Below, piece by piece: positions 14,089 to 53,487 of a stretch of 64,000 nt of DNA; within the stretch, counting starts at the first letter, position 1, and each line of letters opens with the position of its first letter. Origin of the DNA: a virus. Its lineage: Duplodnaviria > Caudoviricetes. The position numbers and the translations under genes are program-made. The DNA is taken from IMG/VR virus record IMGVR_UViG_3300021387_000087; one strand, 5' to 3'. Below the pieces are notes generated by a model. That model did no database searches, was not told the DNA's origin, and was given only the letters and a program-made list of their open reading frames with translations.

Positions 14089-14144
14089 GCAATCACCTTC
14101 CTTTTTTATCACTTTAATCCGTCAAAAGTTAGTTACATAAGAAA

Positions 14145-14220
14145 TAGCAGAGACAAGATTTGAACTTGTGACCTCCAGCTTATGGGGCTGGCGAGATAGA
14201 CCGAACTTCTCCACTCTGCG
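14145..14220 (-). tRNA. tRNA-Met(CAT), initiator-like acceptor stem
   Basis: Cloverleaf CGCAGAG.../CTCTGCT-A, anticodon arm CCAGC-CCCATAA-GCTGG, T arm ACAAG-TTCAAAT-CTTGT; no encoded CCA. Confidence 0.85.
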
Positions 14221-14230
14221 ATATAATAAA

Positions 14231-33786: not shown

Positions 33787-34404
33787 TTATACCTCTTCAT
33801 TAATAATATTCATCTGACAAGACTTCATTGTCATCAATGCTACTCTATGAAGTTCTGGGGTGGTACCTGCGCAACACGATGCATCAATAGTGATTTCTGC
33901 TTCGGGGAATGCCTGACGAAGTGCAAAAGCATTAGAGACTACACAAATATCAGTGCAAACGCCTATCAGCTCAAATTCAAGGTCTTCTCCTTTATAATCC
34001 AAAGGAACATACATATCCAAAAATGAATTCAAAAGATCAACCACTGTTCTCCAAACATTACCCTCAATTGCGAAATTTCCTTTAACAATAGTATTGTATC
34101 CTTCTTTTCCTTTAATCCACGGATGTCGTCCAGTCGCATGAACAGTATCTAGAATATCTTTCACAATATCCAACCCTCTATTACTTTGACAATGCGGAAC
34201 TGGTAAATAACGTCCTTCTCTTGTTTGCGGATAATCATCTTCATCATGCATATCCATCGTAAAAATTAAACGGTCATAATCTTTAACCTTAATCTTCTCA
34301 ACGACCTTTGGTACAATTGCCTGTGCTTCTGGAGTACCAAGAACGCCACTGATGAAATCATTTTGCATATCAATTACCATTAGAATTTTCTTTCTTTTGT
34401 TCAC
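33787..34404 (-). CDS. Isochorismatase-family cysteine hydrolase, nicotinamidase (PncA)-like
   Basis: IDMQNDF, DMH, PHC, GVCTDICV; overlaps the end of cas12f. Confidence 0.82.
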   Translation of the reverse strand: MNKRKKILMVIDMQNDFISGVLGTPEAQAIVPKVVEKIKVKDYDRLIFTMDMHDEDDYPQTREGRYLPVPHCQSNRGLDIVKDILDTVHATGRHPWIKGKEGYNTIVKGNFAIEGNVWRTVVDLLNSFLDMYVPLDYKGEDLEFELIGVCTDICVVSNAFALRQAFPEAEITIDASCCAGTTPELHRVALMTMKSCQMNIINEEV

Positions 34405-35767
34405 TTTTCTTTTTACTCCCTTCGTCTTCTTTAATAAAATTTTGTGACATCGCTATATTTCTAGCAGCATTAAAATCTGCATTAATATATTTTTGATTGC
34501 TATAAATTTTATGACAGATACACTCTGGATTGGTACAAATAAACTCTTTTTGCGTTTTCCGAAGTCCCCTTTCACCACAGACAGAACATGTCTGGGACGT
34601 GTATTTTGGATTAATCTTTCTCACTTCAATCCCGTGTATAGCAGCCTTATACTTAATCTTTTCTTGTAAATCATAATAAGACCAATTCCGCAGAATCATT
34701 TTTGAATGTTCATCATCTTTTACATGACCATATTTATCACGACCAAAGCCCGACAAATCTTCTATATTAATATATTTTGCTCCATTCTTGACTGCAAAAT
34801 CTACTACTCTGCGACTAACCATATGAGAATATGTTTGGACAAAATTTTTCTCCCGCTTTTTCAAACGATCTAATGCACGAAGTTTTTTCTGTCTACCATG
34901 ACCGCCTTTACTATCTTTCAATGCATGCTGTAAACGTCTTCTTTCATTCTGTATCTGAGTTCTAATTCGTAAGAACTCATCTGCGCTTCCAATAGCCAAA
35001 CGTTTATAGTAGTCATTATTTAATGCGCACATTGCAGGAACCGCTTGCCCCAAGTCTACGCCTAATACGACATCTTCATTCAAAGCAGTTTCAACTTTTG
35101 GCACTTCTAATGTAAGATTGATAATAATCTTTGTTCCTTTGATTTCTATTGTGCTACCACCAACTTTATATTCTTCTGTAAAAATTCGTTTAAAAACTTC
35201 CCGCTGTTCTTTACTACGATAAGGATTCCCAAATCGAAACTTAAAAGTAATATTGTTACAAAACTTAATAAGAACTTCTGGCTTCATATCATTTTCCAAA
35301 GCTTCAAAAAGTTTTGCTGGAGTTTCATAATTATGATAGATACCATTATCATCTTTTTTAGTGCCACGAAGTGCAACAAAATTTACATGTACAATTAAAG
35401 GATTGTTGCTTCTGTAAGTTGGTAATGAGATACGCCCATACATCAAACCCTTTTTACAAGCATTATCAAAATCTTGCTTAACTTTTCTACTTGCAGAAGC
35501 TGCAATTGGTAGACCCACAGGAAATTTTATATCTTTTGTATATCCACTGCCCTTTTTACTATTGGTAACTCTCTGAAACAAATTATTTAATTCTTTTCTA
35601 TCTTCCAATGACATTTCATAAGACTTTGCCATAAATAAATGAGATATATATTCATTCATAGCTTTATTTTGTGCTTCAATGCCCTGTTTTAACCATGTAT
35701 ATACTCTATTAATTTCTTCTTTATCTCCAACTACTTGAAGTTCATATTTTCTTGTTAAATTTGGCAT
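34370..35767 (-). CDS. cas12f: Cas12f-family (type V-F, C2c10-like) RNA-guided nuclease, 465 aa
   Basis: RuvC-I GVDLG, RuvC-II IEDLS, CSVC zinc finger, RuvC-III NADFNAARNIA; GRISLPTYR, GGHGRQKKL and LRNWSYYDLQ segments recall Cn/AsCas12f1; 36 bp from a CRISPR array. Confidence 0.88.
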   Translation of the reverse strand: MPNLTRKYELQVVGDKEEINRVYTWLKQGIEAQNKAMNEYISHLFMAKSYEMSLEDRKELNNLFQRVTNSKKGSGYTKDIKFPVGLPIAASASRKVKQDFDNACKKGLMYGRISLPTYRSNNPLIVHVNFVALRGTKKDDNGIYHNYETPAKLFEALENDMKPEVLIKFCNNITFKFRFGNPYRSKEQREVFKRIFTEEYKVGGSTIEIKGTKIIINLTLEVPKVETALNEDVVLGVDLGQAVPAMCALNNDYYKRLAIGSADEFLRIRTQIQNERRRLQHALKDSKGGHGRQKKLRALDRLKKREKNFVQTYSHMVSRRVVDFAVKNGAKYINIEDLSGFGRDKYGHVKDDEHSKMILRNWSYYDLQEKIKYKAAIHGIEVRKINPKYTSQTCSVCGERGLRKTQKEFICTNPECICHKIYSNQKYINADFNAARNIAMSQNFIKEDEGSKKKSEQKKENSNGN

Positions 35768-35803
35768 TATTAATTCCTTTTACTTTTATTTATACCCGTA
35801 TAT

Positions 35804-36163
35804 ACTTCAATTCATACCATATATAAATTAAATCAATTTGATCCGGGATGATTCCATTGTAGACTATGCTTCAATTCACACCTATGTACAAATTGAATCC
35901 TTTTACATAATAAAAGGGACAGCCCACAACCACGCTTCAATTCATATTTGTATACAAATTAAGTCATCGTCCAACCATAACGCGAATCATGGTCAATCTG
36001 CTTCAATTCACGTCTACGTACAAATTGAATCCTGCCTGATCCACCATCAGAGCATACTTTTCCCATACTTCAATTCATACCTGCCTACAAATTGAATCAT
36101 AGAGAACAAATTTGCCTGACAAGGATGGTAAGCTTCAATTCATACCTACGCACAAATTGAATC
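35804..36163 (-). CRISPR. CRISPR array: 6 repeats (31-32 bp), 5 spacers (33, 34, 34, 35, 33 bp)
   Basis: Repeats at 35804-35834, 35868-35899, 35934-35965, 36000-36031, 36067-36098, 36132-36163; plus-strand consensus RCTTCAATTCAYRYYTRYVYACAAATTGAATC; the most degenerate copy is next to cas12f, which suggests minus orientation. Confidence 0.92.
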
Positions 36164-36345
36164 GGCAAATATCAACTATAACCCCTTATATATACGACTT
36201 TTTTTATTCAATTTGTATGTATGATGATTTATTGAGTGGATCAACTCCCTCAACTTTCGGACGTGAAGCCGCCCGTAATACTTTAATAGTATTAATTTAT
36301 GGTGCGAACATACTTAATATTCTCTGTTCACTTTATGTTCGCACT
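36164..36345 (-). ncRNA. Leader/tracrRNA-like region with anti-repeat and hairpin
   Basis: Inverted partial repeat ATTCAATTTGTATGTATGATGATTTATTGAGT starting at 36206; 11-bp hairpin GTGCGAACATA/TATGTTCGCAC at 36302-36344. Confidence 0.65.
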
Positions 36346-36889
36346 GTTTTTTTTATTCTTTATTCCCCATAATCTCATTCCAAATTTCTACATACTCATC
36401 ACCAAGCTGATGACAGAACTGACTTAATATATATTCTTCTTTAATATATCTGCTTTCCCAACGCTTTAAGTTTTCTAACCAATTAGTTAAAGAATCAGTA
36501 GAATTAACCCCTAACATATAGTTATTAACACCATACTGGAAAGTCTTATAAGCAGATTCATAACAACACTTCACGCTAAGCAAATCGTAGCACTTGCTTT
36601 TAATAAACTCTTTAAGTCTTTCTTCGCTAATCATTTAATTACCGCATGCCTTTCTTCTTTTTATAAAGCCGATTAAGTTCCTGCTCGTACATCTTTCTTT
36701 CAATCGGAGATTTACTGTACTTAATACGTTTTTTTAAATCAGATACTGAATATTCGATATCAGGTGGTTTGAGCGCTTCCATAATGTCCTTAAGTTTTGT
36801 ATTAGTATCTATCAGTGTCTGAATCAAGTTTCTCATTTCGGCTTCCATGTTGTTAATACCTCGTGTTTAATTATCAATTGTCAAAAACT

Positions 36890-36917
36890 ATTATAGCGAA
36901 CTTTAGTGTAAAGTCAA
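36890..36917 (-). promoter_or_regulatory. Sigma-A-type promoter upstream of two small ORFs and the CRISPR-cas12f locus
   Basis: TTGACT-16 nt-TATAAT. Confidence 0.6.
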
Positions 36918-53361: not shown

Positions 53362-53487
53362 TTTGTACATTCAAAAAGTCCAATGTTTTCAGTAGGGGGT
53401 ATACAAAATTTGAATATAGGAGAGTATTTACTATATTCATTTTTCGTATACCCCCCCCTGATTTTATTGGGTTTTTTGAAGGTCAAA
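53362..53487. repeat. Long imperfect palindrome
   Basis: GGGGGTATAC..TGAATATAG / CTATATTCA..GTATACCCCC core, extended by TTCAAAAA..CCAAT..TCAG / CTGA..ATTGG..TTTTTGAA. Confidence 0.8.

Follow-up and report, generated by a model that had tools for sequence, protein, structure and literature searches.

Positions 34370-36345 of IMG/VR virus record IMGVR_UViG_3300021387_000087 (Caudoviricetes) raise the question of whether a phage here carries a complete CRISPR nuclease of its own, and of where the guides of such a system would come from. The whole 64,000-nucleotide stretch analysed is referred to below as the window. The locus is most probably a phage-borne type V-F (Cas12f1-like) CRISPR system, in which a scaffold-guided Cas12f would act beside a T-rich 5' protospacer adjacent motif (PAM), with competing phages and mobile elements as targets. 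By the features tested, namely protein, array and covarying scaffold, it is a predicted member of the Cas12f1-type V-F group.

The cas12f gene (34370..35767, minus strand) encodes 465 aa, in which a preliminary description of this DNA had recognised three RuvC acidic residues and a zinc finger. The RuvC triad D238 (GVDLG), E336 (NIEDL) and D431 (NADFN) and the zinc finger residues C394, C397 and C411 are indeed invariant across 18 homologues of 54-85% identity, as is R403; the fourth cysteine of the finger is C416. The NADFN-type RuvC-III motif has been assigned to the derived TnpB/Cas12 clade (PMC10691335). Pairwise ratios of nonsynonymous to synonymous substitution rates (dN/dS) against four sibling genes lie between 0.04 and 0.15, i.e. 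the gene is under strong purifying selection.

Among curated families, the Pfam model Cas12f1-like_TNB matches with 62.5 bits (4e-17, cut-off 26.3), and the best match is the generic RNA-guided TnpB-family model guided_TnpB of NCBIfam (160 bits). No subtype-specific family model exceeds its own cut-off in the Pfam and NCBIfam searches; an identity as Cas12f2 (NCBIfam NF049972) was rejected at 98.4 bits against a curated cut-off of 450 bits. In a sequence search of the PDB, the top 14 matches are all Cas12f. Al3Cas12f (9NZO/9NZR) is the best match (3e-65, residues 165-447), followed by CnCas12f1 (8HR5, 2.5e-63), RhCas12f (9NZP, 7e-48, nearly full length) and then OsCas12f, AsCas12f, SpCas12f1 and Un1Cas12f1; the Al3, Os and Rh Cas12f names for entries 9NZO-9NZT are those of PMC13186708. 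ISDra2 TnpB gives no PDB sequence match to the effector at E<0.01, and an identity as the Cas12p 'hacker' was rejected, its sequence match reaching only 2e-8.

The predicted fold gives a similar ranking. An AlphaFold2 model built on the 18 homologues (mean predicted local distance difference test score 75.9) was compared by Foldseek, in which CnCas12f1 ranks first (1e-27). Next come Al3, As, Sp and Os Cas12f, the Cas12f proteins other than CnCas12f1 scoring 1e-25 to 1e-18. All ranks down to 7c7l_A (6.5e-18) are Cas12f or dCas12f, and TnpBs begin at 4e-15 and extend to 1e-9. The kinship with CnCas12f1 suspected from the motifs thus holds, CnCas12f1 and Al3Cas12f being the nearest solved structures by sequence and predicted fold, and the proposed family search places the protein above the Cas12f1-like_TNB cut-off and nearer to solved Cas12f than to TnpBs. 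Because its catalytic and zinc-binding residues are invariant, its sequence and fold rankings are led by Cas12f and its dN/dS is low, the gene is taken as a predicted intact Cas12f-family nuclease under selection.

Relatives are abundant. The protein database contains 2,759 homologues at E<=1e-3, many of them at 55-60% identity, and at least 97 viral contigs of IMG/VR encode relatives of 40-58% identity; in GenBank phage records the best protein match is 34-39% identical. In relatives at 60-64% identity the array follows the gene on its downstream side, and its repeats are entirely unlike those of the window. Close siblings (85-98% protein identity) are syntenic phage genomes of about 160 kb with the locus at the same position, bordered on one side by an MBL-fold/CW_7 gene and on the opposite side by genes for isochorismatase, Sipho_Gp157 and Band_7. 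The effector adds a well-defined and abundant phage clade to the miniature Cas12f nucleases.

Array and scaffold RNA

The CRISPR array (35804..36163, minus strand) contains six hairpin-forming repeats of 31-32 nt each (36163-36132, 36098-36067, 36031-36000, 35965-35934, 35899-35868 and 35834-35804) and five spacers of 33-35 nt. As first described, it ends 36 nt before the ATG of cas12f, and a ribosome-binding site is found within this distance. It is the only periodic array within the 64-kb window and is accompanied there by the only element resembling a trans-activating CRISPR RNA (tracrRNA). Taken singly, all six repeats fold into a hairpin of 11-12 bp (-5.4 to -11.3 kcal/mol). Degeneracy is greatest in the gene-proximal repeat, and in every array examined the degenerate repeat is located distal to the scaffold. 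A scan of metagenomes for the repeat returned three unrelated single hairpins, none of them with Cas12f. The last repeat abuts the 5' untranslated region and start codon of cas12f (35768-35803), and a CRISPR RNA (crRNA) formed from it would have the gene's own leader as guide, with GAAGT in the PAM position.

A scaffold element of about 60 nt precedes every array on the gene's strand, in 127 cassettes at 72 of 87 loci, and is placed upstream of the gene, downstream of it, or both. It begins with hairpin 1, in which CGGnnn and nnnCCG enclose a 6-nt loop; hairpin 2 (GUGAG...CUCAC, one A being bulged) comes next, then a linker rich in A and finally the anti-repeat. In the window, all parts are located on the minus strand: predicted tracrRNA hairpin 1 (36258..36275) with the loop GCUUCA, complementary to the repeat tail UGAAGC in a pseudoknot; predicted hairpin 2 (36231..36254, UUGAGGGA...UCCACUCAA); the anti-repeat (36206..36227), whose ACAAAUUGAAU is perfectly complementary to AUUCAAUUUGU at the repeats' 5' end; and a leader (36164..36205) that lies between anti-repeat and first repeat and ends in ATATTTGCC. 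Two more predicted 5' hairpins (36276..36344, minus strand) are kept in siblings and are possibly the 5' portion of the tracrRNA. The whole 146-nt scaffold region folds with z = -5.75. No Rfam family matches the cassette.

The hairpin-1 loop is complementary to the final 5-6 nt of the repeat that follows, and both change together. Loop ATTTTG is found with repeat tail CAAAA, ATTTTA with TAAAA, ATTTGG with CCAAA, ATTTGA with TCAAA, ATGTGA with TCACA, ATTTCG with CGAAA, ACTTTG with CAAAG, CCTTT with AAAGG, ATTCAG with CTGAA, ATTTCA with TGAAA and, in this window, GCTTCA with TGAAGC. Across 28 distinct loop/tail classes, none of 2000 permutations is as good. Siblings with the loop ACUUCA have repeats ending in T only (8/8), and in GCUUCA lineages the repeats mostly end in C.

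Covariation was counted in an alignment of 27 diverse cassettes under a four-helix structure, pseudoknot included, which was drawn by eye from these same 27 cassettes. Pairing cells amount to 91.7%, as compared to 74.5% after shuffling and 33-45% with partners shifted by 1-3 columns. Pairs with compensatory changes number five of six in hairpin 1, five of six in the pseudoknot and eight of nine in the repeat:anti-repeat helix; hairpin 2 has them in three of seven pairs, the other four being invariant. G-U wobbles in hairpin 1 fix the scaffold strand as that of the gene. The anti-repeat of the window clade (ACAAAUUGAAU plus an extension) pairs with the extreme 5' end of the repeat, and that of most relatives with the segment just before the repeat tail. 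When scaffold and first repeat are folded together in cis, the minimum-energy structure contains the anti-repeat duplex.

The upstream anti-repeat of the preliminary description is thus part of a covarying element, and its "leader/anti-repeat" appears, from the sequence comparison, to be a tracrRNA-like scaffold. In the general design of Cas12f guides, the tracrRNA pairs through its 3' end with the crRNA repeat's 5' part, and a pseudoknot lies beside the guide; the layout in the window matches this design. The pseudoknot is the best-supported of the predicted scaffold:repeat contacts, because the repeat's own hairpin competes with pairing and the anti-repeat carries no sibling-specific signal.

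The locus would accordingly work as follows. Two small open reading frames (ORFs), scaffold, array and cas12f are probably transcribed together on the minus strand from one promoter region, and the RNA would then be processed. The scaffold would contact each repeat twice, through the loop GCUUCA with the last six bases UGAAGC, which directly precede the spacer, and through the anti-repeat with the repeat's 5' part. Cas12f, presumably a dimer like its solved relatives, would be guided by the spacer to DNA beside a T-rich 5' PAM and cut there with its intact RuvC site, the likely targets being competing, closely related phages and other mobile elements.

Several cassettes can occur at a single gene. 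The locus L045:1700-3710 (likewise L047 and L050-L054) contains one cas12f and three scaffold-array cassettes with the repeat tails CTGAAC, AAAGG and CAAAAC. The AAAGG and CAAAAC tails match their own hairpin-1 loops; in the upstream cassette, with the tail CTGAAC, hairpin 1 is of another kind and the match is weak. Such loci suggest several orthogonal guide classes serving a single effector. One effector family is thus found with cassettes of unrelated repeats, each scaffold loop matched to its repeats. The leader at 36164-36205 differs by one base from L092:9563-9607 and is different from L001:1281-1322, despite 98% identity between the L001 and L092 proteins, and the cassette appears mosaic or recombining from this comparison. 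In an RNA library of bovine gut, prepared by size fractionation, one contig of 165 nt contains a relative's scaffold (window 36246-36278) with an L090/L094-type anti-repeat; DNA carry-over is possible, and the contig is too little for a claim of expression.

Spacer targets and origin

The preliminary description had proposed use against competing phages and a search of the five spacers for targets and a PAM, and the outcome is divided. The window's own spacers yield no convincing match: against GenBank phages and PLSDB plasmids the array gives chance-level matches of 24-34 nt only (E 0.07-4), exact 20-mers of S1-S4 are not found in IMG/VR, and none of the five spacers has a self-target longer than 15 nt in the window. 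S5 matches 20 of 33 nt in two near-identical IMG/VR contigs (L124:8394-8413 and L125:4334-4353). This exact 20-nt match falls in the PAM-proximal part of the spacer; with the flank CCTGTG and no extension it was judged to be chance.

A sibling's spacer does match the window. Spacer 5 of L001, a sibling of 85% protein identity from a cow-rumen assembly, matches 53391-53421 (31/34, E 8e-13), with all mismatches at the far end. The 5' flank of this protospacer is GTTTTC (53385..53421 including the flank, plus strand), and seven loci of three further sibling lineages retain both protospacer and flank with 1-3 changes. This single natural protospacer fits a T-rich 5' PAM, and T-rich PAMs are recognised by Al3Cas12f (PMC13186708). 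Because a sibling's spacer matches this phage's own genome, the match also fits phage-against-phage use between siblings, a role already proposed or demonstrated for further type V systems of phages and likewise for viral mini-arrays (PMC11656645). It offers sequence-level evidence that sibling phages aim Cas12f systems at each other, although activity itself is a prediction, and the predicted scaffold together with a natural protospacer and its T-rich flank makes an editor-style test directly feasible. The protospacer sits in an imperfect inverted repeat (53367-53483) with 53-nt arms, conserved in sibling phages and located in an intergenic gap of about 840 bp upstream of a 332-aa ORF; the inverted repeat could be an origin or a regulatory hairpin.

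Spacer content varies among relatives. Five sibling lineages possess different spacer sets at the same place, with no spacer in common, and in a more distant group with near-identical genes the trailer-end spacers are common and the leader-end spacers differ. Because of these leader-end differences, the lack of common sibling spacers and the position of the degenerate repeat distal to the scaffold, spacers are probably exchanged or acquired with polarity, with no adaptation genes nearby. In the second cassettes of L022 and L031, spacers derived from one target overlap each other and are oppositely oriented, which suggests repeated sampling of one site without fixed orientation.

The geometry of the arrays resembles that of bacterial systems. 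Most relatives possess 36-nt repeats (GTTTTAGA...CAAAAC), 29-30-nt spacers and a TTTGAG leader end; the window clade has 32-nt repeats, 33-35-nt spacers and the tail GTGAATTGAAGC. Type I-C systems have 32-nt repeats with the tail ...GTG(G/A)ATTGAA(A/G)(C/T), spacers of 33-37 nt and a TTC PAM. The arrays of the window clade resemble type I-C arrays in repeat length, spacer length and tail, and the 5' edge of the protospacer reads TTC; their stem layout differs from bacterial I-C, as the stem of the phage repeat ends within 2 nt of the repeat's 3' end and the bacterial repeats found here consist of a hairpin plus an 11-nt handle. These came from species genomes scanned for the tail, in which true bacterial arrays (GTCGC...GCGTGAATTGAAGT) exist; one such array belongs to a genome encoding Csd1/Cas8c. 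A bacterial array in Pectinatus cerevisiiphilus (L101:3198-4600) possesses at least nine repeats GTCGCTCTCCATGTGGAGAGCGTGAATTGAAGT with the same tail; no Csd1 was found in this genome, and no cas genes in the 8-kb flank of the array.

The relatives' cassettes look type II-A and the window clade looks to have switched to a type I-C-like form, loop and anti-repeat having changed in step. One possible but doubtful explanation is that host Cas1-Cas2 loads cassettes that imitate the host's array type, sparing the phages adaptation genes of their own. If true, type I-C acquisition would supply TTC-flanked spacers in a polarity fitting a T-rich-PAM Cas12f. Trans loading of spacers by another system's Cas1-Cas2 has been described for type IV-A3 plasmids (bioRxiv 10.1101/2023.06.23.546257) and for VI-B with II-C (PMC8092290). 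The present locus is like these systems in combining effector and array without adaptation genes and in spacers that vary between close relatives; it differs in that trans loading is experimental for IV-A3 and VI-B and is suggested here by repeat/spacer geometry and spacer diversity. Of most interest at this locus are the code that matches loop to tail and the host-like geometry of the array, and they make spacer origin in an adaptation-less phage CRISPR testable.

Alternative explanations and known relatives

Several findings weigh against a scaffold-guided, active Cas12f system. The anti-repeat pairs with the repeats of others about equally well as with its own (five sibling lineages, no diagonal signal), and no promoter or terminator delimiting a separate tracrRNA was found. 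Within the self-hairpin, some of the UGAAGC tail that the pseudoknot requires is buried, so self-hairpin and scaffold pairing would be mutually exclusive and the bound RNA form is ambiguous. Furthermore, all six repeats have differing centres, the five window spacers have no convincing target among GenBank phages, PLSDB plasmids, IMG/VR or the window, and the five-spacer array is identical in a 2025 bovine-gut sample from a separate study, the samples having been collected 12 years apart, so that turnover is not visible in this lineage. Part of these findings would suit crRNAs that need no tracrRNA, with the repeat hairpin as handle as in Cas12a/Cas12j and the upstream element a leader or regulatory RNA: the six repeats keep their 11-12-bp hairpin via compensatory or wobble changes, and the anti-repeat has no lineage-specific co-evolution among siblings. 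This explanation is improbable, as the two-hairpin covarying scaffold is conserved although repeats differ completely across the family, the loop tracks 11 different repeat tails, and tracrRNA is used by all solved relatives (PMC13186708). Non-identical repeats, an array unchanged over 12 years and window spacers without targets would be expected of a frozen or decaying relic, i.e. a fixed guide set that is not adaptive and possibly non-functional. The repeats are non-identical because their centres vary by wobble or compensatory changes inside each repeat's own hairpin, and the ends used for pairing are kept while the centres drift. Together with strong purifying selection on the gene, the entirely different spacer sets of siblings and leader-end turnover in distant relatives, this makes a relic very improbable.

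If the gene were a TnpB of the transposon kind (IS200/605 or IS607) working with an omega-RNA, and the repeats were not its guides, this would account for the generic guided_TnpB model as best curated match, for the label 'transposase' given to relatives by PHROGs and source annotations, and for a sub-threshold match to Pfam OrfB_IS605. Nesting with TnpBs and transposon ends had been named at the outset as signs of this kind. Instead, no TnpA or serine recombinase family is recorded in the flanks of syntenic siblings, the position is fixed and syntenic, and the 3' end of the gene is overlapped by the next ORF, which leaves no room for a 3' omega-RNA. In the sequence and fold searches, solved Cas12f score over 10 orders of magnitude better than TnpBs, and the scaffold loop covaries with the repeat tails; a TnpB is thus highly unlikely. 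The array might also be a viral mini-array for a host type I (I-C-like) effector, with incidental adjacency to cas12f. The 32-nt repeats, 33-35-nt spacers and tail GUGAAUUGAAGC, the hairpin formed by every repeat and the existence of bacterial arrays of this kind, one in a genome with Csd1/Cas8c, would agree with this, and viral mini-arrays using host Cas proteins are known (PMC11656645). Such use in place of Cas12f is quite improbable here, although the array might conceivably serve both: the hairpin-1 loop matches exactly this tail and covaries with it even between 94%-identical siblings, the cassette lies beside the gene in all siblings, and the repeat stem reaches to within 2 nt of the 3' end, unlike the bacterial hairpin and 11-nt handle.

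Read as a Cas12f1-like system, the locus can be compared with characterised ones. It has in common with CnCas12f1 (8HR5) and V-F1, the former V-U3 (c2c10), the RuvC triad, the TNB zinc finger, small size and a tracrRNA-dependent guide, which is predicted here. V-F1/V-U3 Cas12f1 loci are usually without cas1/2/4. It differs from CnCas12f1 in having about 30% identity in the structural alignment, with the N-terminal 160 residues unaligned by sequence, in a tracrRNA and array upstream of the gene rather than downstream, in unrelated repeats and in its phage locus. Al3, Os and Rh Cas12f are the top sequence matches, RhCas12f over nearly the full length; Al3Cas12f has a guide RNA of 129-156 nt and a T-rich PAM (PMC13186708), which fits the 70-135-nt scaffold and the GTTTTC flank found here. 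These three are bacterial or metagenomic genome editors, and PMC13186708 describes no phage context, upstream cassette or I-C-like repeats.

Cas12j/CasPhi, Cas-lambda, Cas12p and Cas12r are phage-borne with short arrays and no adaptation genes, like this locus; they are other Cas12 lineages, as the weak Cas12p match illustrates. Cas12j is not known to use a tracrRNA. For phage-borne compact type V systems, among them the Cas12p 'hacker' (bioRxiv 10.1101/2025.01.20.633832) and Cas12r of Thermus Lalka phages (bioRxiv 10.64898/2026.04.20.719267), a role in mobile-element conflicts has been proposed or shown. ISDra2 and ISFba1 TnpB possess the same RuvC-TNB core fold and, in their omega/reRNA, a scaffold pseudoknot just before the guide, too, but the present locus has no transposon and no fused guide; its spacers are exchangeable and arranged in an array, and its scaffold stands apart from them. 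Four features distinguish it from characterised members of the Cas12f1-type group: phage carriage, an upstream scaffold-array cassette apparently on the same transcript, a repeat type unrelated to that of its nearest relatives, and individually drifted repeats. Small type V systems often have arrays without adaptation genes, and type V systems carried by phages are already known.

Locus and phage context

The minus-strand order is the one first described: promoter, two small ORFs, scaffold with anti-repeat, array, cas12f and an isochorismatase-family gene, the nicotinamidase of that account, which overlaps the 3' end of cas12f. The predicted sigma-70-like promoter (36890..36917, minus strand; TTGACT-16-TATAAT, 11/12 consensus) is the sole strong candidate upstream of the cassette. 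Between promoter and cassette, the two small ORFs of 93 and 69 aa (36353..36848, minus strand) have no Pfam match, and about 190 nt of non-coding sequence separate them from the first repeat. Both are present in 94% siblings, and an unrelated 217-aa ORF is found instead in 85% siblings; the two could be accessory or regulatory proteins.

The absence of cas1/2/4 and tnpA is likewise upheld in the sibling flanks from which it was read: no Pfam families of Cas1, Cas2, Cas4 or TnpA are recorded within 10 kb on either side in two syntenic sibling genomes, the remaining ORFs of the window not having been scanned individually. The window has no DNA match among GenBank phages. Its phage identity, also claimed before, is evident from portal, large terminase, endolysin and exonuclease genes. 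Contigs as long as 156 kb encode the identical Cas12f protein, and the sequencing runs containing window DNA derive from animal gut, largely bovine; the carrier would be an animal-gut phage with a genome of about 156 kb. The window has a GC content of 36%, with nearly all genes on one strand, and a tRNA-Met (CAT) gene is located at 14144-14221 amid phage genes.

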